A DNA stretch of 64,000 nt from a virus (IMGVR_UViG_3300048893_000042:13382-77381), one strand, 5' to 3'; positions 32,283-50,017 are shown, counted from the first letter of the stretch. Program-made: numbers and translations. Notes: a model not told the origin generated them from the letters alone.

Positions 32283-32400
32283 CCAGTTCTTCCCATTACT
32301 TGACCATGAATACTGAATAACCCCAAGTTTCACTAGGAACCAAGGTCACCTGCACTACCCTGCATGAGTTTGTGCCACCGTGCTCCTCCGCCAGCGGAGG
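32283..32400 (+). promoter_or_regulatory. 118-bp conserved regulatory element, copy A
   Basis: Ungapped match (90/118) to reverse complement of 49900-50017; ends in CCTCCG-N4-CGGAGG hairpin containing SD, 6 nt before ATG 32407. Confidence 0.8.
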
Positions 32401-32422
32401 GGACGTATGATGGAGATCACCC

Positions 32423-32584
32423 TTGAAGCGATTGCCTGAGGCAGTGTTCATCATCTGTGCCTTCGTCTACCTGGTGCTGACCGATGACGGCAGCAGCTGG
32501 TCGAGAGGCTACCTGTGGGGCAGCGCCCAGCCAACGCACAGGCCCCTGATCGTTGTCATTGCTGAACGTCTGGAGAGGAAGTGA
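32423..32584 (+). CDS. 53-aa membrane protein (not in ORF track)
   Basis: GGAG..TTG; MKRLPEAVFIICAFVYLVLT...; TGATG coupling. Confidence 0.55.
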   Translation: MKRLPEAVFIICAFVYLVLTDDGSSWSRGYLWGSAQPTHRPLIVVIAERLERK

Positions 32585-32745
32585 TGCTGCGTGTCATTGT
32601 CCTGATCCTGCTGCTGCTCGTGCTGGCCGCACTCATCAATGAGGAGGGGCAGGTTGAGCTGTGTGCGAAGGCCACACTCATGACCTGGCGGCAGTGCTTC
32701 AATGATCGCCACCCGGCGCTCCGTGTCACCACACCAGAGGACTGA
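32584..32745 (+). CDS. 53-aa membrane protein (not in ORF track)
   Basis: MLRVIVLILLLLVLAALINEEG... Confidence 0.65.
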   Translation: MLRVIVLILLLLVLAALINEEGQVELCAKATLMTWRQCFNDRHPALRVTTPED

Positions 32746-32751
32746 GACATC

Positions 32752-32997
32752 ATGAGGAAGGTCACACGATACCCCCTGCCGGCCACGGCGGGTCGCTTCA
32801 CCATCGTCACGCCCGGGGGTGCCCAGTTCATCGGCATCACCGCCCAGAGCATCCACGCGCTCGCCGACACCAGCCGGCCTGAGGTACCACGCACCCTGCT
32901 GCTCGTGGACACGGAGCAGAACATCCCAGGCCGCAGCCGGCTGGCCCACATCGGCACCTCTGGAAATCGCCACCTGTTCGAGGAGAACCCAAGGTGA
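32752..32997 (+). CDS. Hypothetical protein
   Basis: 81 aa, coupled. Confidence 0.65.
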   Translation: MRKVTRYPLPATAGRFTIVTPGGAQFIGITAQSIHALADTSRPEVPRTLLLVDTEQNIPGRSRLAHIGTSGNRHLFEENPR

Positions 32998-33341
32998 GCA
33001 TGCGCCCGATCAGCCCGCTGGACATCTCAGGGGACCAGCGCAGCACCGACCTGCCCGACCGGGTGATTGAGGTGTGGAACCGCCTGATCGCACAGAACCA
33101 CAACGGCACCATGTCCACCGTGCTCCAGGTGGACGCGGTGGCCGCGATGCGTGACCTGGTGCCTCCTGACTTCCCGCGCTCGGCGGCAGCCTTCATGATC
33201 GAGCAGGGCTGGCTGGACATCGAGCCGGTCTACCGCGCCCAGGGGTGGGAGGTCACCTACCACAAGCCTGCTGCCGAGGAGCACCCGGCGCGCTTCACGT
33301 TCTATGGCTCAGCGAGGAAGAAGCATGAAGAAGGCAGATGA
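32994..33341 (+). CDS. Conserved hypothetical phage protein
   Basis: PDRVIEVWNRLIAQN...WLDIEPVYRAQGWEVTYHKP. Confidence 0.75.
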   Translation: MSMRPISPLDISGDQRSTDLPDRVIEVWNRLIAQNHNGTMSTVLQVDAVAAMRDLVPPDFPRSAAAFMIEQGWLDIEPVYRAQGWEVTYHKPAAEEHPARFTFYGSARKKHEEGR

Positions 33342-33756
33342 TGACCTGAGGGCCATCTTCCACGAGCACCTGCACCAGGTCCACTGGCAGGCCATCGAGA
33401 GTGGCCTGACCGGCCTCGGAATCCCCGACAGCAACGGGTGCCTCCACCGTGAGTTCTGGGTGGAGCACAAGTGGACCCCCGAGTGGTGGGTGTCCCTGAC
33501 CCCTGAGCAGGTGGGCTGGCACCTTCGCCGCTACCGGGCAGGTGGCCACACGTTCATCGCGGTGCGGCGCCACTGTGATGCGGGTCCACGCCGGCCCGCT
33601 GCCGATGACCTGTACCTCTTCCCCGGGCGGCTCGCCCGCGAGCTGAAGGACGTGGGCCTGCGGTTGGACGCACCTCCCCTGGTGATGTCCACCGGTGGGC
33701 CTGCGGCCTGGGACTGGTCTGCGGTGCTCGGTGTGCTGACCGGCAGGCCGGCATGA
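33325..33756 (+). CDS. PD-(D/E)xK nuclease, Holliday junction resolvase-like
   Basis: IESG.TG.GIPDSNG...FWVEHK...LTPEQVGWH.R...GG..FIAVR. Confidence 0.8.
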   Translation: MKKADDDLRAIFHEHLHQVHWQAIESGLTGLGIPDSNGCLHREFWVEHKWTPEWWVSLTPEQVGWHLRRYRAGGHTFIAVRRHCDAGPRRPAADDLYLFPGRLARELKDVGLRLDAPPLVMSTGGPAAWDWSAVLGVLTGRPA

Positions 33757-33977
33757 TTGACCTGCGGTCATCCCAGGTCGTGGTCCGCAGCCGCCAGACC
33801 ATGGAGCCGGCCTTCGTGCTGCAGTTCTATGGCGTGCCATCGCTGGCCTTCATCGAGGTGCCGGACCGACGCGGCCATCGTCCGCCACAGACCGGCGGCA
33901 GGCTCATCCAGCAGGCCCTCCGTGAGCACGGCCTGCACCCGGATGACTGGATCGCCAGCATCTTTGAGTGCTATTGA
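33753..33977 (+). CDS. Hypothetical protein
   Basis: ATGA coupling. Confidence 0.6.
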   Translation: MIDLRSSQVVVRSRQTMEPAFVLQFYGVPSLAFIEVPDRRGHRPPQTGGRLIQQALREHGLHPDDWIASIFECY

Positions 33978-34022
33978 CTTTGCCTCTGGCCGGGCACATG
34001 CTCGCCAGCACAGGAGCAGGGA

Positions 34023-34406
34023 GTGCATGTCATGATGTTGCGAGCTAGCTGGCGCCATGCGGCCCCCTGCCTCCTCCTGCTGACCGCGAGCTGCGGCCCA
34101 GCCGGCCCACTGATCATCGCCGGCATCTCAGCCGCCAAGTCTGGGTATGACCTCGCGAAGGAGGTCAGCCAGGTCGTGGACCCGGTGATCGAGAAGGCCT
34201 GTGCGGTGTATGAGTCACGCAAGGCCACGGCGCTCGCCCGCATCGCGCTCGGTGCGGCCAGACCGGCGGCAGGCCCCCGCGTCATGGCCATGGTCCGCAT
34301 GGCAGACGCCGCATGCGTGGCACCACCCCAGGGTGGTAGCCCACTGGAGACAGCCATGTGGGTGGTCGGGGTCGCCGGCCAGGTGGAGGCGGAGGCGCGG
34401 CCATGA
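34023..34406 (+). CDS. Putative lipoprotein
   Basis: Basic N-terminus, hydrophobic stretch, LTASC lipobox-like. Confidence 0.6.
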   Translation: MHVMMLRASWRHAAPCLLLLTASCGPAGPLIIAGISAAKSGYDLAKEVSQVVDPVIEKACAVYESRKATALARIALGAARPAAGPRVMAMVRMADAACVAPPQGGSPLETAMWVVGVAGQVEAEARP

Positions 34407-34603
34407 GGGTGCCCCTGATCTGCCTCGTCTGGACCCTCTGGCTCATCGTGTGCATCTGGGGGTTCGAGGACATCGTCAAAGGTGACCCGAGCTATGACAC
34501 CGCTGTCAAGAACGTCAAGTTCTGGGGTGGCCTGCTCGTGTTCACCTGCCCGATCTACATGGCCTGGTTCCTCACTGCCGCCATACTGAGGTGGGTGCCA
34601 TGA
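34403..34603 (+). CDS. Small two-TM membrane protein
   Basis: Hydrophobic segments; ATGA coupling. Confidence 0.65.
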   Translation: MRVPLICLVWTLWLIVCIWGFEDIVKGDPSYDTAVKNVKFWGGLLVFTCPIYMAWFLTAAILRWVP

Positions 34604-35007
34604 CCTGGCAGGACATCACTCTGATGGTTCTGAACGGGGTGTTCTGCGTGTCGCTGATGCCGACCATCTGGGGTGGCAGCAAGCCTCCACTCAGCACCAG
34701 CCTCACCACAGGCCCAGCCCTCATCACAGTGGCCGCCGTCTACACTACCCTGGGCCTGTGGGGTGCGGCAGCGGTCCAGCTCGCGGTCGGTGTGCAGTGG
34801 CTCATCCTCGCGTGGCAGCGCCACCAGATGCAGGATGAGCTGCAGCGCGCCCAGGTCTTCCTCGACATGTTCCCATGCTACCACTCGGTCCGCCGGGCCT
34901 CGTGCTGGTACTTCCAGCGTGGCAGGTGCCGCTGCCAGGACATCGTGGAGCACAACGCGCGCCAGGCCATAGACCGGGCACTGGTGTGGGATGAGAGCGA
35001 TGCCTGA
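34600..35007 (+). CDS. Membrane protein with PQ-loop-like N-terminus
   Basis: MTWQDITLMVLNGVFCVSLMPTIW; three hydrophobic segments. Confidence 0.6.
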   Translation: MTWQDITLMVLNGVFCVSLMPTIWGGSKPPLSTSLTTGPALITVAAVYTTLGLWGAAAVQLAVGVQWLILAWQRHQMQDELQRAQVFLDMFPCYHSVRRASCWYFQRGRCRCQDIVEHNARQAIDRALVWDESDA

Positions 35008-35212
35008 GCGCTGTGAAGGCTGCCCAGACCCCATCCTGCCAGGCCAGGCCCGCTACACCGGTGGTGAGGGTGCTGACCCACCGAAGTACTGGCACTGGGA
35101 GTGCCATGAGCGCTTCCTCGCCGACTGCCGCAAGGCACTGCACGACATCCCGGGCCTCGCGGAAAGGGCCCAGCAGATCATCAGGAGGCTGCAGCATGGC
35201 AAGCGTGACTGA
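35000..35212 (+). CDS. Small Cys/His protein
   Basis: CEGC...WHWECH. Confidence 0.6.
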   Translation: MPERCEGCPDPILPGQARYTGGEGADPPKYWHWECHERFLADCRKALHDIPGLAERAQQIIRRLQHGKRD

Positions 35213-35456
35213 GGATGTGGCCAAGACCCGCTGGTGCCCATTCACCCGGGTCATCGCCGGCACACTGGATGGGAAGGGCGGCATGGACTGCAAGCCCCAC
35301 CAGGCACCCTGGAACCGCATCCAGACCGGTGGGGAGAACTTCAACCTGCCGACCGGCACCCAGTGCGTCGGCAGCCTCTGCATGGCCTGGAAGTGGATCA
35401 GCGACGGCGCGGACCCCAGCACCAAGCATGGTGACTGCCGGCTGATGACCAGATGA
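35196..35456 (+). CDS. Cys-rich hypothetical phage protein
   Basis: AKTRWCPF...CVGSLCMAWKW...GDC. Confidence 0.7.
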   Translation: MASVTEDVAKTRWCPFTRVIAGTLDGKGGMDCKPHQAPWNRIQTGGENFNLPTGTQCVGSLCMAWKWISDGADPSTKHGDCRLMTR

Positions 35457-35710
35457 GCCGCCCGCAGATCACGAAGGCCATGCGGTCTGCCCTGCTGTGG
35501 CTGCGACGCCGCAACGGTGACGGTGGGTTCGACACCAATGGGGTGCTCGTGGCCGCCGGTGAGAAGGCTCCAGTGATGCGGGCCACCTGGAACCACCTGG
35601 TGGGAGCCGGCCTGGTGCGTGAGTACCAGGGCAGGAAGCGCCTGGGCGTCACCGAGGCTGGGTCCAGGTTTGACCTCACAGGGGTCACTGAGTCAGGAGA
35701 CGAGTGTTGA
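35453..35710 (+). CDS. Hypothetical protein, possible winged helix
   Basis: ATGA coupling; 85 aa. Confidence 0.6.
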   Translation: MSRPQITKAMRSALLWLRRRNGDGGFDTNGVLVAAGEKAPVMRATWNHLVGAGLVREYQGRKRLGVTEAGSRFDLTGVTESGDEC

Positions 35711-36771
35711 CCCAGTCCGTCGTCTTCGTCACCCCAGGCCTGATCGACATCCGGGCCTTCACCACCTTCGGGGTCAACGCCAAGCCGCTCACCTCCAGCC
35801 CCATTGGCTTCTTCGGCACCGGCCTGAAGTACGCCATCGCGGTGTTGGTGCGGGCGGGTGCCTCCCCGGTGCTGTGGATCGGTCGCGACAGGTACGAGTT
35901 CTCACAGCATGCCACCCAGTTCCGTGACCGCGAGTTCTCCATGGTGAGGATGCGGCGCCAGAGGTGGAACCTGCTGCGGGCCTCGAACCATGACCTGCCC
36001 TTCACCACCGAGCTGGGGAAGAACTGGAAGATGTGGATGGCCTACCGCGAGCTGGAGGCCAACACCCGGGACGAGGGTGGCGAGACACACGTGGTGGAGG
36101 GCACCTGGATGGACGTGGACGGGGGGCACACGGTCCTCCAGGTCGCGAACGATGAGTTCGTCCAGGCACACCTCGACAGGGACCAGACGTTCCTGCCCGG
36201 AGGCCTCACTCTCCGTGAGGAGGACGCGAGGCTCCAGGTTCTGGACCGTCCTGCCAAGCACCTGTACTACCGTGGCCTCCGCGTGGCGGACCTGGAGAAG
36301 CCCACGCTCCACAGCTACAACTTCCTGGGCGCGCTGGAGCTGACCGAGGACCGCACCCTCAAGTACGAGTTCCTGGCGCGCTCGGAGGTGGCCCGGCACA
36401 TCGCGACGTGCCATGATGAGGCCCTGATCGAGGAGGTGCTGACCGCGCCCGACAGCCGGTGGGAGCATGGCCTGGACTTTGACTTCCAGCACGAGGCCCC
36501 GAGTGACGAGTTCTCGGCAGTCATCGAGCGGCGCAGGGGCATGGTGTCGAGGTCCGCCCTGAGGTACTACAGCGGCTGGGCCATGTCCACGGGTCGCGCA
36601 CCCCCGGCGGGCACGTTCACCCTCCACCCCAGGCCCTGGCGTGCGTCCGGCTCCTATGCCTTTGACGCCTCTGACCAGATGGTGCTGTCGGCCAGCGGCA
36701 CGGCACCCCGGCCTGACCAGCTGATGACAGACGTTGTTGACGCGGTGAATGGAGCGGGTGATGGATCGTGA
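35704..36771 (+). CDS. GHKL (HSP90/HATPase-like) ATPase-domain protein
   Basis: SSPIGFFGTGLKYAIAVL and AYRELEANTRDEG motifs. Confidence 0.75.
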   Translation: MLTQSVVFVTPGLIDIRAFTTFGVNAKPLTSSPIGFFGTGLKYAIAVLVRAGASPVLWIGRDRYEFSQHATQFRDREFSMVRMRRQRWNLLRASNHDLPFTTELGKNWKMWMAYRELEANTRDEGGETHVVEGTWMDVDGGHTVLQVANDEFVQAHLDRDQTFLPGGLTLREEDARLQVLDRPAKHLYYRGLRVADLEKPTLHSYNFLGALELTEDRTLKYEFLARSEVARHIATCHDEALIEEVLTAPDSRWEHGLDFDFQHEAPSDEFSAVIERRRGMVSRSALRYYSGWAMSTGRAPPAGTFTLHPRPWRASGSYAFDASDQMVLSASGTAPRPDQLMTDVVDAVNGAGDGS

Positions 36772-37123
36772 GATGACTGAGTTCCTGGACGGCGTGGTGG
36801 GTGTCGTGGAGGCCAACTCGTTCGAGCAGCACATGCTCTGGAGTGAGAACCGGCAGCGCACCCACCCACGGACGTGGGAGCAGCTGAACCCGGGCCTCCT
36901 GGAGACGGTTGGCGTGCTTGACGGCAGGCCCGTGTGCGTCAGCCTCCACAAGGTCAGGGTTGGCGGTCACCTGATCCTGTTCGTGGATGCCACCAGTCAG
37001 GTCGTGGACCACGAGATGATCGCGAGGTGGATGGCGGACACCATGCCAAGGTCGGCACTTCGAGAAAATGGCATCGTCAACCGCACCGACGCTATGAACT
37101 TCCACAACGTCTTTCCTCGTTGA
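36761..37123 (+). CDS. Conserved hypothetical protein
   Basis: VVEANSFEQHMLW...GRPVCVSL...ILFVDATSQVVDHEMI. Confidence 0.7.
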   Translation: MDREMTEFLDGVVGVVEANSFEQHMLWSENRQRTHPRTWEQLNPGLLETVGVLDGRPVCVSLHKVRVGGHLILFVDATSQVVDHEMIARWMADTMPRSALRENGIVNRTDAMNFHNVFPR

Positions 37124-37174
37124 CCTTCGTCACCAGGCAGGGTAGAAGGTGGGTGTCACCAACTGGAGGACACC

Positions 37175-37420
37175 ATGAGGGCCACCATCACCAGCAAGAA
37201 CGACGAACTCCACCCCGACACCGCCGAGCAGATCGAACCCGGCGAGGAGGTGCTGTACTACAAGGACTACAAGAAGTCAGGCGAGGATGACATACTGCTC
37301 ACCCGCAAGGCGAACGGGGCCATCGAACTCTGGGTCAACGGGTGCGTCGTCTACAGCGAGGCGGGTGACGCAGAACTCACCGAGGCGGAGCGCCAGAGGA
37401 ACGGCGCGGCCCACCACTAG
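37175..37420 (+). CDS. Hypothetical protein; last gene of the rightward block
   Basis: GGAGG RBS; 81 aa. Confidence 0.75.
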   Translation: MRATITSKNDELHPDTAEQIEPGEEVLYYKDYKKSGEDDILLTRKANGAIELWVNGCVVYSEAGDAELTEAERQRNGAAHH

Positions 37421-37531
37421 GTCGCCGCGCCAGCTGCCGCCTCAGGGCCTCTACCCTCGCCCGGTTGCGGTCCAGGATCGCCCGGGCCAGCGCCCTGACG
37501 GCAGCTCGCCGCTCGGCACAGCCGGCACAGC

Positions 37532-37687
37532 TCACCGGCTGCCCAGCAGCAGGAGGATGAGCAGGATCACAACCACCAGGCCCACCCCGCCGCCACCCCA
37601 GTGGCGGTAGGGCACCCCCGTGTAGTAGCCCCCACCGACCCCACCAAGCAGCACCACTATCAGAATCACAATCAGAACTGTCGTCAC
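37532..37687 (-). CDS. DUF3309-like small membrane protein
   Basis: MTTVLIVILIVVLLGGVGGGYY...WGGGGVGLVVVILLILLLLG. Confidence 0.7.
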   Translation of the reverse strand: MTTVLIVILIVVLLGGVGGGYYTGVPYRHWGGGGVGLVVVILLILLLLGSR

Positions 37688-37872
37688 CACGTCCTCCTCT
37701 GGTACTCGCGGTTGTCTCGCAGGGCAGCCTCGATCTGCTCCACCGTGCCGAGGCTCCATGGGCTGTCAGGATGGGGTGCGGCCTGGAGGCCCTGTCTGAC
37801 ATTCTCCAGTTCCTGAGCAGTCAGGTGGACCACAAACCCACACACGTTGTCACGATCTGGGTATATCTTCAA
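37684..37872 (-). CDS. Hypothetical protein
   Basis: 62 aa; GTGA coupling to next gene. Confidence 0.55.
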   Translation of the reverse strand: MKIYPDRDNVCGFVVHLTAQELENVRQGLQAAPHPDSPWSLGTVEQIEAALRDNREYQRRTW

Positions 37873-37974
37873 AGGCCTGCTCCCGTGCCGCTCCGCATGG
37901 CGGTCCTCCGTCGTGCACTACCCTGCATCACACCCCTGAACTCGTGGCTCCTCCGTGGGGAGCGCTGCACACTA

Positions 37975-38007
37975 CTCAGCCCCTCCCGCTGGGCGGAAGG
38001 GGCTGAG
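37975..38007. terminator. GC-rich hairpin after gene 38028
   Basis: CTCAGCCCCT(37975-84)/AGGGGCTGAG(37998-38007) stem; no U-tract. Confidence 0.45.
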
Positions 38008-38027
38008 GGGTCGTGGCGCCGATCCTT

Positions 38028-38600
38028 TTACGCGGCGGGTTCGGGCTGTGCCGTGGTCTCCGGGTTCTGCAGGTCCAGGCCGATGGCGCGTGCCGTGTGG
38101 TCGGTGGAGATGTCCACCAGCCCGTCGAAGACCGTCAGCCCGGCGCTGTCCTTGACCTCGAACGCGAGGCCCGTGGCCTCGCGGACCAGGGGCTGCATCT
38201 CCACCGCCGGCGAACCATCGGCCATCGTGCTGACGGAGACGGTCCAGCTGGTGGTGTCGGGGCTGCTGACGGTGAACGTGTCGCCGGTCGGTGCCGACAC
38301 GACGTTGCCGTCCGCGTCCTTTGCCAGGATGCGGTACTTGGTGACCTCGGTGTTTTTGAGTGCGATGTTGGTCAAGAGTGTTCCTCCTTCGGTGCAGCGC
38401 TCGGGCACCTCCAGCCAGAGGCTGGTGGGCTCCGAGCACCCGGGCTCAATGTTCGTGAGGTAATCCTCGATGCGCTGCAGCTCCACCAGTATGGACTGGA
38501 GCATGCGGCGGCGGACCCAGCGGCTCATCCGCTCCCAGCTGGGCCGAAGCGGGTGCGTCTCAGGCAGCATGGCTCGCCCTCCCAAACCCAATGACGTCAT
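38028..38600 (-). CDS. Hypothetical protein with Ig-like C-terminal part; alternative TTG start at 38375
   Basis: Beta-rich YRILAKDADGNVV..; GAAGGAGG RBS before in-frame TTG 38375. Confidence 0.65.
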   Translation of the reverse strand: MTSLGLGGRAMLPETHPLRPSWERMSRWVRRRMLQSILVELQRIEDYLTNIEPGCSEPTSLWLEVPERCTEGGTLLTNIALKNTEVTKYRILAKDADGNVVSAPTGDTFTVSSPDTTSWTVSVSTMADGSPAVEMQPLVREATGLAFEVKDSAGLTVFDGLVDISTDHTARAIGLDLQNPETTAQPEPAA

Positions 38601-38781
38601 CCAGGGTCAGTTCGGGTCCCTGGTCCTCAGGCCGCACCTTCCAGCCCTCGACTACAATGACATCGGGTGCGAACGGGGTGACCCGGAAGAATGTGGCACC
38701 CAGGCGTTCCAGCTCGTGCGACATGTCGCGCACTGCTGCCGTGCAGCTCTGGGCGTCCACACCTAGGACGCGGTGGGACAC
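38560..38781 (-). CDS. Hypothetical protein
   Basis: Part of ORF 38560-38817; GTG just after upstream stop. Confidence 0.55.
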   Translation of the reverse strand: MSHRVLGVDAQSCTAAVRDMSHELERLGATFFRVTPFAPDVIVVEGWKVRPEDQGPELTLDDVIGFGRASHAA

Positions 38782-38785
38782 CCAG

Positions 38786-38971
38786 TCAGCTGGCTGGGGC
38801 ACCGGGCGGACGCCCATTGGGGAAGCTCACCGGTGGCCCACCCTGCGGCTGCATTGGGGTGGTGGACTGGGAGGGCGTTCCCACGGCATAGGACCGTGGT
38901 GCCGGCTGCAGAGTGTCCGCACGCTTGGATGGCGCCGCTGGCTGGTGGGTGATCGTGCTCATGGAACTCAT
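38786..38971 (-). CDS. Pro/Ser/Thr-rich small protein
   Basis: GAGGAG RBS; low-complexity 61 aa. Confidence 0.55.
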   Translation of the reverse strand: MSSMSTITHQPAAPSKRADTLQPAPRSYAVGTPSQSTTPMQPQGGPPVSFPNGRPPGAPAS

Positions 38972-38994
38972 GTTGATCTCCTCTGGTAAAAAGG

Positions 38995-39525: not shown

Positions 39526-39686
39526 TGAGCTGTCTCTCCTGTGATGGCGCGCAGCCTGTCGATCTCCTCCAGCAGCGCGTCGATGTGGGCCTCGGTCCAC
39601 CCATCTCCATAGGTGGCCTCACCCCGCTGCTGGCGATCCTTCGCCTCCCTGCGCCTCTGGCGAACCTCTTCCACCATGTCGGTCAC
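39522..39686 (-). CDS. Hypothetical protein
   Basis: GTGA and ATGA coupling; HIDALLEEIDRLR. Confidence 0.6.
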   Translation of the reverse strand: MTDMVEEVRQRRREAKDRQQRGEATYGDGWTEAHIDALLEEIDRLRAITGETAQ

Positions 39687-42526: not shown

Positions 42527-42570
42527 GTTGGCTCACTCCTCCAGGTCCGGTGCCGCCGTCCGCGCTCGGG

Positions 42571-42604
42571 AGGGTCCAGCTGTACTACCCTACAGCTGGA
42601 CCCT
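42571..42604. promoter_or_regulatory. Perfect 14-bp-stem hairpin with CTACCC loop
   Basis: AGGGTCCAGCTGTA-CTACCC-TACAGCTGGACCCT, intergenic. Confidence 0.7.
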
Positions 42605-42650
42605 GAACCCGTGGCTCCTGCGACACCGGAGCAGGTCAGTTTTCTGAGGC

Positions 42651-43739
42651 TCAGGCTGCCTTGGCCAGGACCTCCCACTCGGTCTTCGGGAGCTCGATCA
42701 ACCGGCCACCGAACTGCTCGAACTGCGAGGCCCGGTCATAGTTGTCGAGGTCTTCCGCCGTCCGGGTGATCGCGTTCATCAGACCGTACTGGGTCAGGTC
42801 GCCCCCACGCACCAGGTGGTGCAGGATGCTGCCGCGCTCAGTGTCGGTCATGTCGAACTTCTTGGCCGTGACCTCCACCACCTGCACCGGGTCGCCAGTG
42901 ATCTGGTTCTTCGCGGTCGCGGCGATCTTGTCCACCGTGGCCTCGAACTGGGCCTCCTGGAAGGCACCCTGAACCACGTCACCGATCTGGGCCCACAGGG
43001 CCGCATCGGTCAGCCTGCGGGTGTTGTCAGTCAGCAGCCGATAGGTGTCCTCACCGACCTGCTCGCGCCCGCCCAGGTGCATGGTGCGCTTCGAACGCTC
43101 GCTGATCACGAGCAGGTTGGTGCACCCCCCGGTGTAGATGCTTGTGTGGACCGCCAGGGCGCCATAGCCCACCTCGCTGTTTGACAGCACCAGGGCGGGG
43201 GACACGGTGTCGAAGCGGTGGTGGCCCTCACCCAGGCTGACCCCGGTGGGAAGGTCGCGCTTGATGCGGCTGTCCACCACCTTGAGGTACAGCTTGGTCT
43301 CCGTCACCTCGCAGCTCAGCACCTCCACGCCCAGCCGCAGCAGCGGTGGGAGCGCCGCCTCCATGAGCTGGTCGTTGTCCAGTGCCCGGAAGGCGTTGGA
43401 CAGGAAGGCCCGTGCGGTGCCGGCAGTGCCGTCGTTGAAGGTCCGGATCATCCTGGTGTCCGCCTTCTTGTGGAGCCAGGTGTTGATGTTGGAGGCCAGC
43501 AGGTCGGGTGCTTCGGCGGCCATCCGATCATAGTAGGCCTTCGGCACCTTGGTGTACTCGCTGAGCTGCCCGTGGATCACGCCGGTGGTCTGCAGGTCCA
43601 CGGGCAGGCCGCGCACGGTGAGGTGCCGCCCGTCCTGCTCCATGACGATGTTCCGGGTGTCGGCGAGGTAGTCATGCTTGAGGTCACGCTGGCGCTCAAT
43701 CTCCTTGGCCAGGTCGGTCAGTGTGCGTCCGATCTTCAT
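42651..43739 (-). CDS. DUF932-family phage protein
   Basis: ARAFLSNAFRALDN, LSNSEVGYGAL, CTNLLV, GDLTQYGLMNAITRTA. Confidence 0.8.
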   Translation of the reverse strand: MKIGRTLTDLAKEIERQRDLKHDYLADTRNIVMEQDGRHLTVRGLPVDLQTTGVIHGQLSEYTKVPKAYYDRMAAEAPDLLASNINTWLHKKADTRMIRTFNDGTAGTARAFLSNAFRALDNDQLMEAALPPLLRLGVEVLSCEVTETKLYLKVVDSRIKRDLPTGVSLGEGHHRFDTVSPALVLSNSEVGYGALAVHTSIYTGGCTNLLVISERSKRTMHLGGREQVGEDTYRLLTDNTRRLTDAALWAQIGDVVQGAFQEAQFEATVDKIAATAKNQITGDPVQVVEVTAKKFDMTDTERGSILHHLVRGGDLTQYGLMNAITRTAEDLDNYDRASQFEQFGGRLIELPKTEWEVLAKAA

Positions 43740-43812
43740 CTCAGTTCCTCCAATGCAGCGGGTGTGCTGCCACCTGCCCTCGCTGTGCGCGCGAGGGCAG
43801 AGGGCAGGGCAC

Positions 43813-44151
43813 TCAGCCTTGCTTCTTCGCTTCGATCCACCACCCCAGCAGGGGCAAGGGCTTGTTGTCAGGGTCGGTCAGGTCGTCCTCCAGGTGGACT
43901 TTGTCACCAGCTAGGGCACGCATGACGGCCATGGACAGGCGGCTGGACCGTTCGAGCAGGGCCAGCTCAACCGGGTCCGTGGTCTCCGCCCTCGCGGCCT
44001 CAACCGCCGCGAGGTAGCGCGTGTTCTCGTCGCCCGTCGCCCAGAGGGTCTGGACGTGGGTGAAGGCCTTCTTGACCCGCTCTTCGAGGGTTGTCGCACC
44101 GGCGCAGGCCGGGCGGGTGTCCACCACCGCGATGCTCATGATGTTGCTCAC
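43813..44151 (-). CDS. Hypothetical protein
   Basis: GGAGG RBS; GTGA coupling. Confidence 0.65.
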   Translation of the reverse strand: MSNIMSIAVVDTRPACAGATTLEERVKKAFTHVQTLWATGDENTRYLAAVEAARAETTDPVELALLERSSRLSMAVMRALAGDKVHLEDDLTDPDNKPLPLLGWWIEAKKQG

Positions 44152-44402
44152 TGTCCTATCCTCCGTTGCCCCAGTTGGGAAGGCAAGCGCCCAAGGCCCA
44201 CTGCCCTCGCGGCGTCCTCGATGGTGGAGGTCACGGGTGGGTTGCCCGGGGTCGGTGCGACCACCGCACCTGTGCCCCAACGGTTGTAGCTCTGGACGCA
44301 GCCAGCGGGCACCACCTCCCCCACTGGATAGTAGCTCTTGCATGGTGCCTGTGCCAGGGCTGGCAGTGCCAGCAAGCACAGGGCCGCAGCGATCCTCATC
44401 AT
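44148..44402 (-). CDS. Small exported protein
   Basis: MRIAAALCLLALPALAQA signal-peptide-like. Confidence 0.6.
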   Translation of the reverse strand: MMRIAAALCLLALPALAQAPCKSYYPVGEVVPAGCVQSYNRWGTGAVVAPTPGNPPVTSTIEDAARAVGLGRLPSQLGQRRIGQ

Positions 44403-44405
44403 GAC

Positions 44406-45299
44406 TCACATCCCCATCTCTTCAAGCATGTTGTCGAAGGTATCGAGGTCCTCAGCCTCGCGGGCCAGGGCCTTGTTCCAGGCGTCTGGGTCCCGCAGCC
44501 GACCCACTGCTGTGCTGATCAGCTCGCGGATGGTGCGCGGGTCCAGGGCATCGAGCTCCCACGATTCGTCGCCGAACTCCTCCTGGTAGGCCTGGAACCG
44601 GCTGTCGCTGTGCTTGGCCGGGTCGGGCGGCAGGTTGTGCTGTTCCACCTGGTCCTTGTTGAGGGCCAGCCGCTGGACGGCCACGGGCACGCCGCAGAAG
44701 ACCTGCAGCCGCTCGCGGTTGTCGCGGGTCATGTCCAGGCCGCTCGGGTCGTGGTCACCGAGGTGGAGCACAATGGGCCGCTGGCCCCGCTGGTAGTACC
44801 CAGCGAAGCGCTGGCCGGCTCGCCACTGCTCGCTCTGTGAGTTGTAGCCCCGGCACGAGAAGAAGTCCACCCTCAGCTCGTTGCAGATGCCGGCGATCAC
44901 ACCCGACAGGGCCTCCTTCTCGATCCAGACCTCAGGCCGCATCGGCTGACCCTCCCACAGGTCGCGACGGTATCCCGCCTTGGCCTCGCGGATGGCCTCC
45001 CCCGGGTGACGGTAGGTCCGCAGGCCCATCAGGTTGCGGGTGCGGTCCTCGATGCCGTCCCAGGGCAGCAGGCCCGCCATGCGGCCGTCGCTCACCGCGT
45101 TGCCGATGCGGTTGTAGCTGCTCATCGTGTTCGGTAGCACCTTGCGCTGCACGAACTGGTAGTACAGCTGGCGCAGCGTGAGCACCAGGTTCTGCTGCCG
45201 GTACTCGGCCATGATGGAGCCGGCGACACGCACCAGCTCCAGGGTTCCCGCCGACAGCTTCTTGTCGCTGTAGCGGATCAGTGTGCCTTCGTTGCTCAC
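44406..45299 (-). CDS. Topoisomerase VI subunit A-like (wHTH plus TOPRIM) protein
   Basis: LTLRQLYYQ (putative catalytic Tyr), EVWIEKEAL, CRGYNS, HLGDHDPSG, RLALN, SWELDAL. Confidence 0.8.
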   Translation of the reverse strand: MSNEGTLIRYSDKKLSAGTLELVRVAGSIMAEYRQQNLVLTLRQLYYQFVQRKVLPNTMSSYNRIGNAVSDGRMAGLLPWDGIEDRTRNLMGLRTYRHPGEAIREAKAGYRRDLWEGQPMRPEVWIEKEALSGVIAGICNELRVDFFSCRGYNSQSEQWRAGQRFAGYYQRGQRPIVLHLGDHDPSGLDMTRDNRERLQVFCGVPVAVQRLALNKDQVEQHNLPPDPAKHSDSRFQAYQEEFGDESWELDALDPRTIRELISTAVGRLRDPDAWNKALAREAEDLDTFDNMLEEMGM

Positions 45300-45544
45300 C
45301 TGACCTGACTCCTCTTCCTGAGCACCGGCGGCAGCACCACCGCCCGTGCGGCGATCTGCCGCCGGGGTTCGGTGCTGCACCGGTCTGGAAACTTCTTCAC
45401 CCTGACGGGCAGTGGGAACTTGTAGCGTGCGATCTTGACGGGGGGCAGGTCGCGCGCCACCTCCAGGGCACGCTGCCTGGTTGGCCACTCAGACACCGTC
45501 TCCCAGTCCCCCGGTGCGAAGCCGAGCTGGATGCGATATGTCAC
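45296..45544 (-). CDS. Hypothetical protein
   Basis: GTGA couplings. Confidence 0.65.
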   Translation of the reverse strand: MTYRIQLGFAPGDWETVSEWPTRQRALEVARDLPPVKIARYKFPLPVRVKKFPDRCSTEPRRQIAARAVVLPPVLRKRSQVR

Positions 45545-46512
45545 CGTCCAATCCTCCTCACTGCCTGGCCGCCGCCGACCTGGCCATCCAGGCTGATGCG
45601 GCTGCCCACGTCGCTGCCCGCCCGGTAGGCGGAGCGGTCGATGCTGTCGTCACTGCGGCGGCCACCGCCACGGTTGTAGCGCCAGCCGTTCGTCTTCCAC
45701 CACCGCTCGTCCGCCTCCTTGCGCTGACGCTCCTGCTCGGCAGCCTCCTCAGGGTGCTCGGAAGCCCAGCGTGTGTGGGCCTCGCGCTCCAGCCGGCGTT
45801 GCTCAGCGAACCTGGCTCTCTGGGCACGCTGCTCGGCACTCCATCCCTCGCCATAGAGGAAGTCGTTGTTGGCATCCTCCTCCAGCTGCTGGACATCGGC
45901 GATGGTCAGGGCGCGCGACGTGGATGCGCCGGTCGTGTCCACCTGCCGGGCCTCGGCAAGCTTCTGCTGCCGGCGCTCGGCCAGGCGTTCGACCAGCCTG
46001 TCGGCCATGCCAGCCCGGAAGGACATCGCCCAGTTCGAGTACCGCAGGTTGTTGTTCCACTCCTGGAGGCCTGAGATGGCCTCAACCATCGCCCGCTCGA
46101 CAGCCTCCTCCAGGTAGAAGGCCATGTGCTGGGTGGCGGTCGTGTTGACCACCCTGCCGACCAGCCGGTGTCGCTTCTGCTTGAGGCGCTTCTCACGGGT
46201 GCCACCCCAGTCGCGGTCTGCGACCGTCTTCCACTCGGTGACGTCCTGGGTCCAGTACATGCAGAAGTGCAGCTCGGCCACTGAGCGCCAGAGCTGGCGC
46301 TGCCACTTGTAGAAGCCGCCACGCACCCGCGCATCCTCGCGCTTGCCGTCCTGGCCGCTGTTCCGTTCGACCTCAGCCGTGGTCAGGTTCCACTCGTCCA
46401 TCAGCTCCTGGGCCTTGGCCGCTGCCACTGATGCTTCGTTCTCGTTCGGGCTGTCCGCCAGGTTCAGCAGCTTCTGTATCCTCGCCAGTATCGTGTCAGG
46501 TGCGTCAGCCAT
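45541..46512 (-). CDS. DUF2786-domain protein
   Basis: ILARIQKLLNLA.SPNENEASVAAAKAQELMDEWNL. Confidence 0.85.
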   Translation of the reverse strand: MADAPDTILARIQKLLNLADSPNENEASVAAAKAQELMDEWNLTTAEVERNSGQDGKREDARVRGGFYKWQRQLWRSVAELHFCMYWTQDVTEWKTVADRDWGGTREKRLKQKRHRLVGRVVNTTATQHMAFYLEEAVERAMVEAISGLQEWNNNLRYSNWAMSFRAGMADRLVERLAERRQQKLAEARQVDTTGASTSRALTIADVQQLEEDANNDFLYGEGWSAEQRAQRARFAEQRRLEREAHTRWASEHPEEAAEQERQRKEADERWWKTNGWRYNRGGGRRSDDSIDRSAYRAGSDVGSRISLDGQVGGGQAVRRIGR

Positions 46513-46572
46513 GGTTCACTCCTCCAAGCAAAGTGGACGGCGGCACAGGCCACCGTCCACGGGGCAGGTCAG

Positions 46573-46983
46573 TCAGGCAGCAGCATCGTCCATGGCGCTG
46601 TCCGCCTCGTCAATGGCGTCCAGCACCTCGCCGATGGTGTCCTCGAAGCCATCGGCCAGGGGGTCGATGTCGTTGAGGGCATCGCGGGCCTCGCCGATCT
46701 TCTCGGCAGCCGTTTCCAGGTTGTCCGCAGCCTGCTGAGCGTTCTCGCCGCGTTCGCTGCCCTGGAGCGCTTCGGGCATGTTGTCGTAGTATTCCTGCTC
46801 CTCGTCCTTGAGGCTGTCCACCTCGCTGGCGATGTTGTCGAGGCCCGCGTCACCGAGTTCGTCCACGGCAGCCTTCAGGGCCTCGCCCTCCAGCTCACCG
46901 TCCCGGATGGCCTCGATGGCGGCCTTGGCCTCGCCCAGCGCCTTCTGCTGGGCCGCGATGTCCTTCCTGCGCTTCTGGTTCAT
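46573..46983 (-). CDS. Acidic helical phage protein
   Basis: MNQKRRKDI...EEQEYYDNMPEALQGSERGE. Confidence 0.8.
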   Translation of the reverse strand: MNQKRRKDIAAQQKALGEAKAAIEAIRDGELEGEALKAAVDELGDAGLDNIASEVDSLKDEEQEYYDNMPEALQGSERGENAQQAADNLETAAEKIGEARDALNDIDPLADGFEDTIGEVLDAIDEADSAMDDAAA

Positions 46984-47050
46984 GTCACTCTCCTGCAGCG
47001 TGAGTGCTGCCCACTGCCCACCTCACGGATGGGCAGACGGCACCGCTCAC

Positions 47051-47302
47051 CTAGTCGTTGATGATCAGCAGGCCTGCGATGATGTTGCGGGCCTCGCTCC
47101 TGTAACGCCAGCCAGCCACATCCTCGCCACTGGCGTCCATCTCCACGTGGCTGTAGGTGAAGTGGTGCTCAGCGCCGCTGGCGGCACGCACCACCACCTC
47201 ATCCGGCGGGAACTCCACGGCACAGATGCCCAGGTCACTGGCCTCGGCAACGTACCATCCCTCAGAGGTGAGGGTGAACTGGTCTGCGCGGTACTCAGCC
47301 AT
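47051..47302 (-). CDS. Hypothetical protein
   Basis: AEASDLG...EDVAGWRY. Confidence 0.7.
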   Translation of the reverse strand: MAEYRADQFTLTSEGWYVAEASDLGICAVEFPPDEVVVRAASGAEHHFTYSHVEMDASGEDVAGWRYRSEARNIIAGLLIIND

Positions 47303-47765
47303 GCATCATCTCCCAGCAGTCGGGTCCGATCCCCCGGTCAATGCTCTCCGGGTGGGTCAGCTCGCGGCCACATCGGCCGCAGTGGTTGTGGTGCCTGACC
47401 TCCAGGCAAGGGGCCAGCTCACCGCCCTCCAGGTGTTCCCAGAAGTAGGTCCAGGCCCGCACCGCGAAGCTGGAGGCGGTCAGCCGGCTGGACTTCGTGA
47501 GGCGGAATCGGGGGAACAGGTCACCATCCATCACACCCATGTAGGTGTACTGGTCTCCATCGGTCAGCACCTTGACGAACCAGCGGTCCTGCGGCTCACC
47601 CGCGTCGTCGGTGGCCCGGTCCACCCGGTAGGTGTAGTGTGAGCCGGTGCGCTGGCTGCGCAGCGTCAGGGTGGCGTGCCCGGCGAGGGCATACTGCCGC
47701 ACCTCGCCGGGGTCGGTCATGAGGTGGCCGTCGATCCGCTCGGCCAGTTCCGTCAGTGCTCCCAT
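47295..47765 (-). CDS. DUF6011-domain protein
   Basis: C-terminal CGRCGRELTHPESIDRGIGPDC. Confidence 0.8.
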   Translation of the reverse strand: MGALTELAERIDGHLMTDPGEVRQYALAGHATLTLRSQRTGSHYTYRVDRATDDAGEPQDRWFVKVLTDGDQYTYMGVMDGDLFPRFRLTKSSRLTASSFAVRAWTYFWEHLEGGELAPCLEVRHHNHCGRCGRELTHPESIDRGIGPDCWEMMHG

Positions 47766-47775
47766 CTGGGCCTCC

Positions 47776-48000
47776 TCAGCTCAGCACAACGGCGGTCTGC
47801 CGTTCGTCGCGGTCACCATCCTCAGGGTCCGTGACCTTGGGCATGCGGTGGTACGCACTCCAGACCACCTGCTGCACCTCAACCTGCTCTACCTTGGGGG
47901 CCACGGTCGTGTGCCAGTGGTCACCGTAGTTGTAGCTGAAGTGGACCTCAGCATCCGGGTCCATCAGGCCCAGCTCTTCGATCAGCTCACTTACCTTCAT
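47776..48000 (-). CDS. Hypothetical protein
   Basis: GGAGG RBS; MKVSELIEELGLMDPDAEV. Confidence 0.75.
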   Translation of the reverse strand: MKVSELIEELGLMDPDAEVHFSYNYGDHWHTTVAPKVEQVEVQQVVWSAYHRMPKVTDPEDGDRDERQTAVVLS

Positions 48001-48068
48001 GTCATCCTCCGTTCTCAGCTCAGTGCTGACCGCTGGACCGGCGTGCCGGCCCAGACGTCAGAACTCAG

Positions 48069-48197
48069 TCAGTCGTCATCGTGCTCTCTGTTCGACAGTG
48101 TGCGAACGAACACGCTGACGAACCCACAGCTGGTGGAGTAGCACCGGAAGAGGAACCGATGCCCCCACTCATTCTCGGTGGTGAGGTAGTAGCTCAT
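48069..48197 (-). CDS. 42-aa hypothetical protein (not in ORF track)
   Basis: ATGA coupling; MSYYLTTENEWGHRFLFRC... Confidence 0.55.
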   Translation of the reverse strand: MSYYLTTENEWGHRFLFRCYSTSCGFVSVFVRTLSNREHDDD

Positions 48198-48409
48198 GCC
48201 GCATCCTCCTGGTGGCAGTCCACGAACACGTCCACCCAGTCGCGGGCTTCGAGGATGTTGTCACCCTGCCAGCCCATGCTCATGTCGTGGAGGTGGACGA
48301 AGACCGCCAGCCCACCGAAGCGGGTCAGGGTCGCAATGATCAGGAAGCCTGACCGCTCCTCGCGGTGGACCTGCCGGACCAGCTTCACGTCGTGGGTCAT
48401 CGTCAGCAC
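48194..48409 (-). CDS. Hypothetical protein
   Basis: 71 aa, coupled. Confidence 0.6.
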   Translation of the reverse strand: MLTMTHDVKLVRQVHREERSGFLIIATLTRFGGLAVFVHLHDMSMGWQGDNILEARDWVDVFVDCHQEDAA

Positions 48410-48612
48410 TCCTCAATGATGTCGTGGACCGCATCGAGTGCGGTGTGGAAGGGCAGTTCCATCAGGGTGGATCGCACCCACTGCCATGCGCTGCTGAGCG
48501 GGTCGTGCCCGTTCACCAGCCGGCTCCTGAAGTAGTCCACCTGGACCCCGTGTCGGTCTTCGGTGACCACCGCGCGGCGCTTGCCGTCACTCGACAGGAT
48601 CGTGATGCTCAT
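48403..48612 (-). CDS. Hypothetical protein
   Basis: Part of ORF 48403-48672; ATG 48612. Confidence 0.6.
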   Translation of the reverse strand: MSITILSSDGKRRAVVTEDRHGVQVDYFRSRLVNGHDPLSSAWQWVRSTLMELPFHTALDAVHDIIEEC

Positions 48613-48724
48613 TGTTCCGCTCCTGCAGTCGGGTGAAGAAGCCTGGGTGCTCAACCGCAGCCAGGTCGGCATCCGTGCGCTCGCGCACCCGGTCCGCCTC
48701 GATCAGCTTGTCAATTGGGTTCAT
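48587..48724 (-). CDS. 45-aa hypothetical protein
   Basis: AGGAGG RBS; MNPIDKLIEADR. Confidence 0.55.
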   Translation of the reverse strand: MNPIDKLIEADRVRERTDADLAAVEHPGFFTRLQERNNEHHDPVE

Positions 48725-48959
48725 CGCTCGCCTCCTTGTAGTCGGGTTCGATGTTGACCTCCTCGCGGGCCCAGGTCCACTCGGCCATGTGACCCTCGGC
48801 ATCGAACCGCATCTCGTGGAGCTGGTGGCTGCTTGGGTCGAAGAGCAGCACCGTCACACCGTCGTCCAGGTGGCAGATCAGGGTGCCCGGCTCTGCGCCC
48901 GCGAAGGCGTACCAGTCCTGCCGGGTCATCTCGTGGAACTCGTGTCCAAGAACCTTCAT
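48711..48959 (-). CDS. Hypothetical protein
   Basis: GGAGG RBS; TGATG coupling. Confidence 0.65.
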   Translation of the reverse strand: MKVLGHEFHEMTRQDWYAFAGAEPGTLICHLDDGVTVLLFDPSSHQLHEMRFDAEGHMAEWTWAREEVNIEPDYKEASDEPN

Positions 48960-49141
48960 CACTTCCTCCACGCTGGGTGCGCTTCGCTGAGGCACCAGGT
49001 CGGCACCCCGGGTCTCATATCAACCAGGGCCCAGAAGGCCTTCGCCGCTTCGGCCTGGTCGTCATAGTCGCGGCTGACCTTGGTCAGCGTCTGGGTGAGC
49101 GCTGACTGCTGTCCGCGCTGACCTTCGATTGCCCACTTCAT
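48959..49141 (-). CDS. Hypothetical protein
   Basis: ATGA coupling; 60 aa. Confidence 0.6.
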   Translation of the reverse strand: MKWAIEGQRGQQSALTQTLTKVSRDYDDQAEAAKAFWALVDMRPGVPTWCLSEAHPAWRK

Positions 49142-49296
49142 TGCTTCACCTCGATCACGGTGATGTTCGGCTTGTTCTGGTCCCGATGGGTGTACATCCG
49201 GCTGCGTCCATCATAGAAGGACACAACGTAGCCCTCAGACCGCAGTTCCTGGTCTGTCTTGACCAGGTCGGTGGTTTCGATCCGCTTGGTTCTCAC
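49138..49296 (-). CDS. 52-aa hypothetical protein
   Basis: AAGGAGAG RBS then GTG 49296. Confidence 0.65.
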   Translation of the reverse strand: MRTKRIETTDLVKTDQELRSEGYVVSFYDGRSRMYTHRDQNKPNITVIEVKQ

Positions 49297-49319
49297 GGTG
49301 CTCTCCTTGGTTGGCTTGC

Positions 49320-49670
49320 CGCAGCGCCGGTGGCCGGCGCTCGGGCAAGACAACGAGGCCCGCCGGGTGGCGGGCCTGTCGTCTTATATCTCAGTTGTCA
49401 TCCCCGGCTGGGCCGGGCTGCGCCGGGATCGACCCGGTTGCGCGGTAGACGGGGTGTGACCCGTGGCCCCACTTTTGGAGGGTGGCGGCCTGGCGCTCGC
49501 ATAACCCGTTATCCGCAGCCCGTTAGTACGGGGGGCCACTTCGTGGCGGGTGGGGGTTTTAGCTTTGCGGTGAATTCCGCCAGCGCTCCGGTTCCAGGCC
49601 GGTTCAACGAAGCGGACCATACCCGGGTGGTTGATGAAGGTCAACCTCGAAGTTGAGGTTTCCTCACCCA
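49320..49670 (-). ncRNA. Candidate structured leader/ncRNA (dense hairpin array)
   Basis: About ten short stems in 350 bp, no RBS-led ORF; strand inferred from flanking genes. Confidence 0.4.
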
Positions 49671-49683
49671 ATCAGTTTGATTT

Positions 49684-49893
49684 TTATCCATCACCAGCGT
49701 CGTCCTCCCGCGAGCTATCTCCCGCGAAGGAGGCCCGCTCCAGCTGCTCGGCGACACGCCGGAGCTCGGCGGACCACTCCACCAGATGGCGCCGGGTGAC
49801 GTGCCGCTTGACGATGGCGAGGCTCATGGCACCCACGACACGGGCCACCCTGCGGTGCCACCCTTCGACCTGCGATCCGAGGCCTTGGCTCAA
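49684..49893 (-). CDS. First gene of the leftward block (69 aa)
   Basis: TTG 6 nt after the GGAGG of regulatory copy B. Confidence 0.55.
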   Translation of the reverse strand: MSQGLGSQVEGWHRRVARVVGAMSLAIVKRHVTRRHLVEWSAELRRVAEQLERASFAGDSSREDDAGDG

Positions 49894-49899
49894 AGAGTG

Positions 49900-50017
49900 C
49901 CTCCGGTGCCGGAGGAGCAAAGTTCCATCAGATGATGCACTATCCTGCAGGTGAAGTTGGTTCCCTGTAATACTTGGGGTTATTCAGTAATGACCCTCAA
50001 GTAATGGGAAGCACTGG
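49900..50017 (-). promoter_or_regulatory. 118-bp conserved regulatory element, copy B
   Basis: Inverted ungapped homologue of 32283-32400. Confidence 0.8.

Follow-up and report, generated by a model that had tools for sequence, protein, structure and literature searches.

T4-type phages carry a composite element, the PeSL (promoter-early stem-loop), in which an early promoter and a stem-loop are combined within ~100 bp of intergenic DNA and which is repeated among ORFans (Arbiol et al. 2010, PMC2839356; PMC4122927). PeSLs have been shown experimentally to drive transcription, to terminate it and to recombine (PMC2839356), and it has been proposed that they let gene modules move while expression is kept (PMC2839356; PMC4122927). 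Here we analyse a pair of inverted elements, the twin cassette, for which the PeSL appears to be the closest described analogue. The pair lies in a stretch of 64,000 nucleotides (nt), called the window below, which spans bases 13382-77381 of the 77,381-bp IMG/VR virus record IMGVR_UViG_3300048893_000042 (rated 100% complete) and has a GC content of ~65%. Like PeSLs, the twin cassette is a composite intergenic motif of ~100 bp, with putative transcription signals and a stem-loop just before the Shine-Dalgarno (SD) sequence and start codon, and is repeated in ORFan-rich plastic regions, also near polymerase genes. Two other arrangements bear comparison. In lambda (nutL and nutR) and HK022 (putL and putR), two related cis elements stand in opposite orientation in the leaders of the two oppositely directed early operons; they act as RNA, and both copies keep the same RNA loop. 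The C1 operators of phage P1 are asymmetric and are scattered in either orientation.

The 118-nt core of copy 1 occupies positions 32283-32400 on the plus strand, and that of copy 2 occupies 49900-50017 on the minus strand, in inverted orientation. Both face inward and are sense-oriented to the genes downstream. The cores align without gaps and are identical at 90 of 118 positions, the count given in an earlier note on this DNA and obtained again when we recounted it. Among 200,000 random 118-nt inverted pairs drawn from the window, the mean was 31.9 identities (standard deviation 5.3, maximum 58), which places the twins 11 standard deviations above random pairs. No inverted repeat in the window is longer than theirs (118 nt, 76% identity; the runner-up measures 41 nt), and self-blastn of the whole 77,381-bp genome revealed no other dispersed repeats. 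The perfect runs in the alignment are 18, 15, 10, 9 and 8 nt long. Mismatches were clustered rather than evenly spread (permutation P ~0.03), a pattern that would fit constraint on discrete sites. The blocks conserved in both copies are CTTCCCATTACTTGA, TACTGAATAACCCCAAGT, GGAACCAA and TCACCTGCA-N6-TGCAT, the last followed after exactly 15 nt by TGCTCCTCCG-N4-CGGAGG. A start codon comes 6 nt after CGGAGG in each copy (ATG 32407 in copy 1, TTG 49893 in copy 2). Direct reading confirmed all the blocks, spacings and start codons that the earlier note had listed, and both the 15-nt distance between the hairpins and the 6-nt distance from SD to start are kept exactly between the copies. Weak similarity persists for ~80-100 nt further upstream, to about 32205 and 50115, and the two extensions (32205-32282, plus strand; 50018-50115, minus strand) could be aligned locally with P ~0.025.

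Conservation in discrete blocks, the lack of any indel in 118 nt, the fixed SD-to-start distance and the sense orientation lead us to favour a unit that controls transcription and translation. On balance, the twins are probably a duplicated regulatory cassette, composed of promoter and operator boxes and a 5' leader with a hairpin that would sequester the SD. One cassette would have been duplicated as an inverted copy, which would place both facing arrays of small genes, most of them ORFans, under the same control. The earlier note had proposed either a promoter/operator/leader unit or twin origins. The control unit fits everything that could be tested, given the intergenic AT-rich position, the sense orientation, the SD-to-start spacing, the clustered boxes and the block-wise conservation, whereas twin origins were unsupported by the tests run.

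At the DNA level, an asymmetric box with a consensus near ATCCYCAAGTRATGGG is clustered in each region. The boxes occur in both orientations and would for that reason be read as double-stranded DNA. Copy 1 has four (centres 32219 >, 32258 <, 32300 < and 32326 >) and copy 2 has six. Two of the former lie in the upstream extension, at 32208-32230 (+) and 32247-32269 (-), and four of the latter in the extension of copy 2, at 50030-50052 (+), 50049-50071 (-), centre 50092 (-) and 50093-50115 (-). The core motif C[CT]CAAGT occurs 18 times in 77 kb, and eight of these occurrences fall in the two regions (3 + 5), each a stretch of ~115-125 bp; the first region has one extra near-match, GGTCAAGT. With a matrix trained on the boxes, nothing comparable was found elsewhere in intergenic DNA. 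The innermost two boxes form an everted pair, ACTTGRSS...SSYCAAGT. In copy 1 the pair reads ACTTGACC ... CCCCAAGT (32289-32337, plus strand) and holds a -35-like TTGACC (32300-32305) with CAAGTT 18 nt later (32324-32329). In copy 2 it reads ACTTGAGG ... CCCCAAGT (49963-50011, minus strand), with TTGAGG, 18 nt and CAAGTA. The pattern CTTGRSS-N15-19-C[AC]AGT, which was chosen post hoc, has eight matches in the genome, seven of them in the twin regions, versus 0.84 in shuffled sequence. Within copy 1, two ~42-bp units are weakly alike (P about 0.02).

We suggest that this DNA layer, ~150 bp with 4-6 CCYCAAGTRAT(GGG) boxes, would be recognised by a sequence-specific protein and/or RNA polymerase. 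The arrangement TTGACC/TTGAGG-18-CAAGTT/CAAGTA may be a weak sigma70-type promoter, probably requiring a factor; a good -35 with a poor -10 would fit a factor-dependent promoter. Transcription would begin close to the conserved GGAACCAA. The family scans reported below revealed neither an RNA polymerase nor a sigma factor of the phage, so the host polymerase would have to be used. Other known sites were compared by eye with their consensus sequences, and were dropped. The GG-N10-GC spacing of sigma54 was off by one and its GG absent, the extracytoplasmic function (ECF) -35 GGAAC lacked a conserved -10 at 16-17 nt, and the boxes have CCYCA, not the CCACA of a DnaA box. LexA, CtrA and IHF sites were also weighed and dropped.

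At the RNA level, the predicted leader of ~70 nt would end in a stable hairpin (CUCCUCCG-N4-CGGAGG), burying GGAGG 6 nt before the start codon. This hairpin, termed hairpin 2, extends over 32379-32405 (plus strand) in copy 1, with a folding energy of -16.4 kcal/mol (z = -2.9), and over 49900-49915 (minus strand) in copy 2, with -10.1 kcal/mol. In both copies the GGAGG lies in the 3' arm and is paired as a whole. Hairpin 2 might restrict or gate translation, stabilise the 5' end or do both, and gating or damping of translation through the SD and/or such stabilisation is the plainest functional prediction for the cassette.

Upstream of it stands a mini-hairpin, hairpin 1, with a stem of only 4 bp in both copies. 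It reads TGCA-CTACCC-TGCA in copy 1 (32351-32364, plus strand) and, on the plus strand, TGCA-CTATCC-TGCA in copy 2 (49936-49949), so that the 6-nt centre of copy 2 is the reverse complement of what its orientation predicts. Five of these six bases differ from copy 1 in sense, and five of six match its reverse complement, which looks as though the loop had been flipped. TGCA-CTAYCC-TGCA plus the GCTCC...GGAGC hairpin, the 3' half of the twins, makes up a two-hairpin module that recurs elsewhere in the genome. Module copy 3, at 37914-37963 (plus strand), lacks the upstream boxes and stands just before the hairpin at 37975-38008 where the plus and minus arrays converge. Copy 4, at 42571-42632 (plus strand; z = -4.5), lies in a gap between minus-strand genes. 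Its hairpin 1 (42571-42604) has a perfect 14-bp stem with a compensatory TGTA/TACA change, and these features argue for a real hairpin at 42581 rather than a fixed half-site. Copy 5, a degenerate one (TTGGCTCCTCCGTGGCCGGAGCCAGTCAG), lies ~1.8 kb left of the window at genome 11531-11616 (L173). Preceding copy 5 we also observed a distinct hairpin, CGGAGGAA...TTCCTCCG; the site is within a weakly supported minus-strand open reading frame (ORF). Across the five module copies, hairpin 2 pairs in two registers. Rfam gave no match at E<=1 over 26.8-51 kb. CTAYCC hexamers number 37 in the genome, and only four (32355, 37918, 42585 and 49940) have a flanking stem of >=4 bp. All four read on the plus strand, a result expected in 1 of 8 cases by chance if orientations are random or flips neutral, and ~250 kb of relatives' DNA contained no stem-flanked CTAYCC. 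It is possible that the stem-flanked CTAYCC is a strand-specific DNA signal, such as a nick or priming site.

The genes around the twins were mapped by GC content at third codon positions (GC3) and identified by family scans (Pfam, PHROGs). The intergenic gaps of both copies have a GC content of ~0.52, compared with ~0.65 for the genome, and there are three such gaps in all. Each copy directly follows a polymerase gene, namely an exonuclease subunit plus an 85-amino-acid ORF in the case of copy 1 and PolA in the case of copy 2. The upstream genes have the same orientation as the copies, and no predicted terminator separates the two, so the copies are internal heads, not isolated operon starts. 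The small genes behind copy 1 occupy 32423-37816 (plus strand), those behind copy 2 run from 49920 down to 38028 (minus strand), and the two ORFan arrays meet at ~37.9 kb. The GC3 map thus supports the view, put forward in the earlier note, that each copy faces an array of small genes, with the reservation that the heads are internal and the minus array probably comprises several transcripts.

The spacing between CGGAGG and the start codon holds in both copies, but ATG 32407 opens only a 10-codon ORF (MMEITLEAIA-stop; 32407-32439, plus strand). The first substantial ORF after copy 1 ends at 32584 in another frame, with TTG 32423, TTG 32432 and GTG 32444 as candidate starts. Since these starts overlap or just follow the stop of the 10-codon ORF, coupling of the two ORFs is suggested. 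Behind copy 2, the first ORF encodes 69 amino acids from TTG 49893 (49684-49893, minus strand). It is a real gene, judged from a homologue directly after PolA in the relative L170; the ESM Atlas returned no match for the first ORF. After this ORF comes a non-coding stretch of 330 bp that has a sigma70-like promoter of its own as well as a terminator-like hairpin, and for this reason the minus-strand 'operon' is probably not a single transcript. Within this stretch, 49350-49644 (minus strand) is a candidate structured non-coding RNA of ~250 nt, with TTGACC-17-TATGGT at 49644-49616 and a 9-bp GC hairpin with a T-rich tail at 49377-49356. Its minimum free energy was -120 kcal/mol, compared with -104 kcal/mol for shuffles (z = -3.3). 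By the GC3 criterion there is no gene here, and no Rfam, transfer RNA (tRNA) or transfer-messenger RNA (tmRNA) match was found.

Relatives were reached through PolA and comprised 17 IMG/VR loci, six contigs from the protein collection and the whole genomes of two relatives. None of those examined had the boxes, the CTAYCC hairpin or the twin, and alignments of their post-PolA gaps with the twin were not significant. By blastn the element had no match in 50,697 phage records, and a 23-base gapped pattern of it had none in metagenome contigs. About 150 matches to its exact 14- and 16-mers in IMG/VR proved to be chance on re-blast. The literature on regulatory repeats in YuA/M6-like phages yielded nothing useful. 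However, two of the more distant relatives have twins of their own, comparably placed but unrelated in sequence to the one studied here. In G002 (IMGVR_UViG_3300047319_000798; PolA 47%), an 80-nt direct twin (C1:51837-51916 and 66529-66607; L185, L186) has one copy immediately after PolA and carries TTGACT-17-TAAGTA/TATGTA with an AT-rich tract upstream, as well as a leader hairpin around CGGCAATCGGGCCGCT. In the L170/L172 phage (Logan SRR9179563 contig, PolA 63%), a 150-nt direct twin heads two operons (L172:1590-1840 and 3900-4150), and an operator-like palindrome, TCGGTGATT-N7-AATCACCGA, occurs at at least five intergenic sites in L172. Further L172 sites listed with its twin, the palindrome and the TGTACCCT motif lie at 62-133, 4176-4202 and 5542-5568. 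L172 also has four copies of TGTACCCT[CA]GT[AG]TGG, one of them within the convergence terminator; the motif TGTACCCT/CACCTGYAC, common to the phage studied here and L172, was not enriched overall. After PolA, L171 has TTGACC-18-TAGTCT and a hairpin, and L177 a perfect TATAAT. In other relatives PolA overlaps the next gene and the gap is absent. Lineage-specific duplicated cassettes of promoter plus hairpin look like a habit of the clade.

Several observations weigh against a duplicated regulatory cassette. Neither copy has a terminator before it, and the genes downstream could therefore be transcribed by read-through from the polymerase operons, with no need for a promoter in the cassette. 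A consensus scan, which required hexamers resembling TTGACA and TATAAT at a spacing of 16-18 nt and a -10 with A2 and T6, found no sigma70 pair in either copy, in agreement with the earlier note, and the putative -10 (CAAGTT/CAAGTA) fits at only 2-3 of 6 positions, while the -35 is good. Among ~50 ORFs around the elements, Pfam and PHROGs identified no DNA-binding regulator; the sole find was a DUF2513 protein (29943-30317). These scans returned only DUF2513, DUF2786/DUF7168 and DUF6011, and no repressor, sigma factor, RNA polymerase, recombinase or transposase. The leader as a whole was no more stable than shuffles, in 91-nt windows (z = -0.6 and +0.3) or in 77-nt windows (z = -1.3 and +0.5), and as RNA the centre of hairpin 1 differs between the leaders (CUACCC and GGAUAG). 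A search for the host in 185,579 species genomes found no relative. Finally, the earlier note had set conservation in relatives as a check, and the element sequence was not conserved in any relative examined. This last result carries little weight, because the nearest relative is only 66% identical in PolA.

Some of these observations would suit a leader or processing element that lacks a promoter, is reached by read-through transcription of the polymerase operons and acts in cis on RNA. It might mediate nut/put-like antitermination, RNase processing that uncouples the ORFans from the replication genes, or translational control as the operator of a phage protein. Besides the missing upstream terminators and consensus promoter, the stable SD-containing hairpin, the intergenic recurrence of the two-hairpin module (37914, 42581 and genome 11531-11616) and the resemblance to nutL/nutR of two copies each reading into its own operon are consistent with such a role. 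We regard it as rather unlikely, because boxes in both orientations point to recognition of double-stranded DNA and the loops CUACCC and GGAUAG would be unreadable by one RNA-binding protein; the absence of an Rfam match, the 4-bp stem of hairpin 1 and a leader fold no better than shuffles also speak against it. The conserved SD hairpin, the start-codon spacing and the sense orientation would in turn be needless for a DNA-level replication signal, whether twin origins (iterons plus an AT-rich stretch) or strand-specific priming or nicking hairpins centred on CTAYCC, which we consider very unlikely. Both gaps are AT-rich and lie beside polymerase genes, and the boxes are repeated in an iteron-like manner. 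However, box orientation is mixed, no initiator was identified, no DnaA-box-like or clear unwinding element was seen by eye inspection, and the cumulative GC skew is monotonic across both sites, without a turn at 32 or 50 kb. The stem-flanked loops also speak for this explanation. They all read on the plus strand (4/4), ~250 kb of relatives' DNA has none, the stem at 42581 covaries, and the copy 2 loop was flipped back to the plus strand relative to its flanks, with 5/6 bases matching the reverse complement. Against this, four loops on one strand have a chance of 1 in 8, and the strand bias is confined to the mini-hairpin, as the module of copy 2 is inverted as a whole. A broader scheme, in which the CTAYCC hairpin serves a phage with hypermodified thymidines as a plus-strand nick or priming signal kept by the loop flip, and the cassettes are also PeSL-like linkers that flip or swap the 17.5-kb ORFan block with expression preserved, seems quite unlikely.

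The earlier note had also raised the possibility that recombination between the copies inverts the 17.5-kb block and gives genome isomers; more generally, the cassettes might be PeSL-like linkers that shuffle ORFan modules. The inverted arrangement around an ORFan-rich block is real, and an exchange within the shared leader would keep both arrays expressed. PeSLs of T4-type phages do recombine (PMC2839356). In the relative L170/L172 the opposite operon contains one of the block genes (33304-33756), but its relocation does not match the pattern of a whole-block flip. The evidence leans against inversion. The copies are only 76% identical with a longest identical run of 18 nt, and they have not been homogenised as frequent exchange would predict, so that such exchange is unlikely. 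A six-frame search of the whole genome at E<=0.1 detected no serine (PF00239) or tyrosine (PF00589) recombinase, and the second orientation is not on record, a single contig of the phage being present in the databases searched. We find inversion very doubtful. It is extremely improbable that the copies mark the ends of a mobile or inserted island as terminal inverted repeats. They are imperfect, inward-facing and accompanied by subterminal boxes around an accessory-looking block, but no transposase or recombinase family was matched, the ends are not sharp, with similarity fading outward, and the flanks are not directly duplicated (AGACAC and TGAGAG). Moreover, homologues of several block genes are found in the corresponding region of relatives, which indicates an ancestral block rather than a recent foreign island. 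A decaying, functionless remnant of a segmental duplication would account for the presence of only two full copies, their 24% divergence and the lack of conservation in relatives. It would not account for clustered mismatches (P ~0.03), exact spacings, the absence of indels in 118 nt or the placement of both copies precisely before an SD and start codon, and we give it little credence.

As judged from the gene map and family scans, the source genome is that of a tailed phage. Structural and packaging genes extend over 385-26890 (minus strand), including the large terminase (24289-26310, minus strand), followed by an AT-rich divergent gap of 842 bp (26891-27732) and an operon (27733-32180, plus strand) that ends with the exonuclease subunit of a DNA polymerase (30949-31926). 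Beyond the twins, the DNA from 63954 down to 50115 (minus strand) is taken up by a replication and nucleotide block, which continues round to the left end of the record, where a primase and helicases are encoded. The block contains PolA (50115-52298, minus strand) and also encodes a ribonucleotide reductase, a thymidylate-synthase-like enzyme and a radical-SAM enzyme; HMUDK and ADDT domains are present in relatives. The closest PolA among 5.8 billion proteins searched was 66% identical, and identity to cultured phages was <=39%. In the same nucleotide-modification operon, a 215-amino-acid protein (57106-57753, minus strand) matched 'terminase small subunit' (phrog_800, E = 7e-21), at a distance from the packaging genes. 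The genes between the copies, about 40, are mostly ORFans. The exceptions matched in Pfam and PHROGs were a helicase-related 150-amino-acid protein, DUF2786/DUF7168, DUF6011 and a phrog_8203 protein. A 360-amino-acid topoisomerase-VI-A-like protein (44406-45488, minus strand) matched a PHROG annotated as DNA topoisomerase (phrog_6247, E = 4e-95). No tRNA or tmRNA genes were found.

The 26891-27732 gap is the largest AT-rich gap (GC 0.52). It is bounded by the plus-strand operon and by the 26294-26890 ORF, which lies on the minus strand directly downstream of the large-terminase gene. The gap contains AT-rich arms, GTTATTGGTTATTG and CAATAACTAATA (27386-27460), around a GC-only palindrome, as well as several AATACTCAA repeats; the scan found no consensus sigma70 site in it. 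This gap is a candidate packaging, origin or divergent-promoter region. The minus-strand structural genes contain tandem coding repeats, 3 x 78 nt at 6431-6664 and 360-nt units of 74-79% identity at 17808-18979, which are probably repeated domains of tail or decoration proteins. In the tail-gene block, 7630-8634 (~1 kb, GC 0.58) fails the GC3 gene test, yet is coding-like on the minus strand. It holds one of the genome's four GAATAACCYCAAG 13-mers and may be a recently acquired gene of different composition.

If the twins are a duplicated regulatory cassette, they would show how gene control is organised in an uncultured siphovirus-like phage of high GC content with hypermodified thymidines. 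A single unit, recognised by a regulator or polymerase and duplicated once, would govern both facing arrays together; these comprise about 40 genes, mostly unknown and probably early, host-takeover or anti-defence genes. The boxes would offer a handle for fishing out the regulator, and the SD hairpin a simple, testable translational gate.

Compared with known systems, the twins share with the invertible segments of Hin/Gin/Cin and fim type the flanking of a DNA block by inverted repeats. In contrast to the short, near-identical crossover sites of those systems, the repeats here are long and share only 76% identity; no recombinase was found, and the block spans 17.5 kb and about 40 genes. The asymmetric box of ~15-20 bp in both orientations resembles the P1 C1 operators, of which some imperfect palindromes likewise overlap promoter-like hexamers. 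In contrast to these, the boxes are confined to two loci, no repressor was identified and lysogeny functions were undetected. With nut and put the twins have in common short hairpins with conserved flanks and one element per operon. Unlike nut and put, the two loops of hairpin 1 are reverse complements (CUACCC and GGAUAG, 4-bp stem) and so do not give the same RNA, the twin operons converge, extra double-stranded-DNA boxes lie upstream, and Rfam has no match.

The PeSL comes closest, including the presence of a stable stem-loop in the conserved motif (hairpin 2, -16.4 and -10.1 kcal/mol). The two differ in several respects. PeSLs have a strong sigma70 consensus, and the scan found none in the twin cassette. 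They number dozens of copies, mostly direct, compared with two full inverted copies and three partial modules here. The twin hairpin sequesters the SD, whereas the PeSL stem-loop is an upstream terminator. There is no sequence similarity, and PeSL activity is experimental, while the twin cassette is known from sequence alone. The statement of the earlier note that no described element matches this one stands at the sequence level, across Rfam, phage records, viral contigs and metagenomes, but not in kind, since PeSLs are such elements (PMC2839356). Most likely, the twin cassette is a phage feature of an ordinary kind; it represents no new type of element and opens no long-standing question. 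It belongs to the general kind of repeated phage regulatory cassettes, though to no named family. As a duplicated promoter and hairpin in a plastic region, it would extend such cassettes from T4-type myoviruses to a very different lineage.

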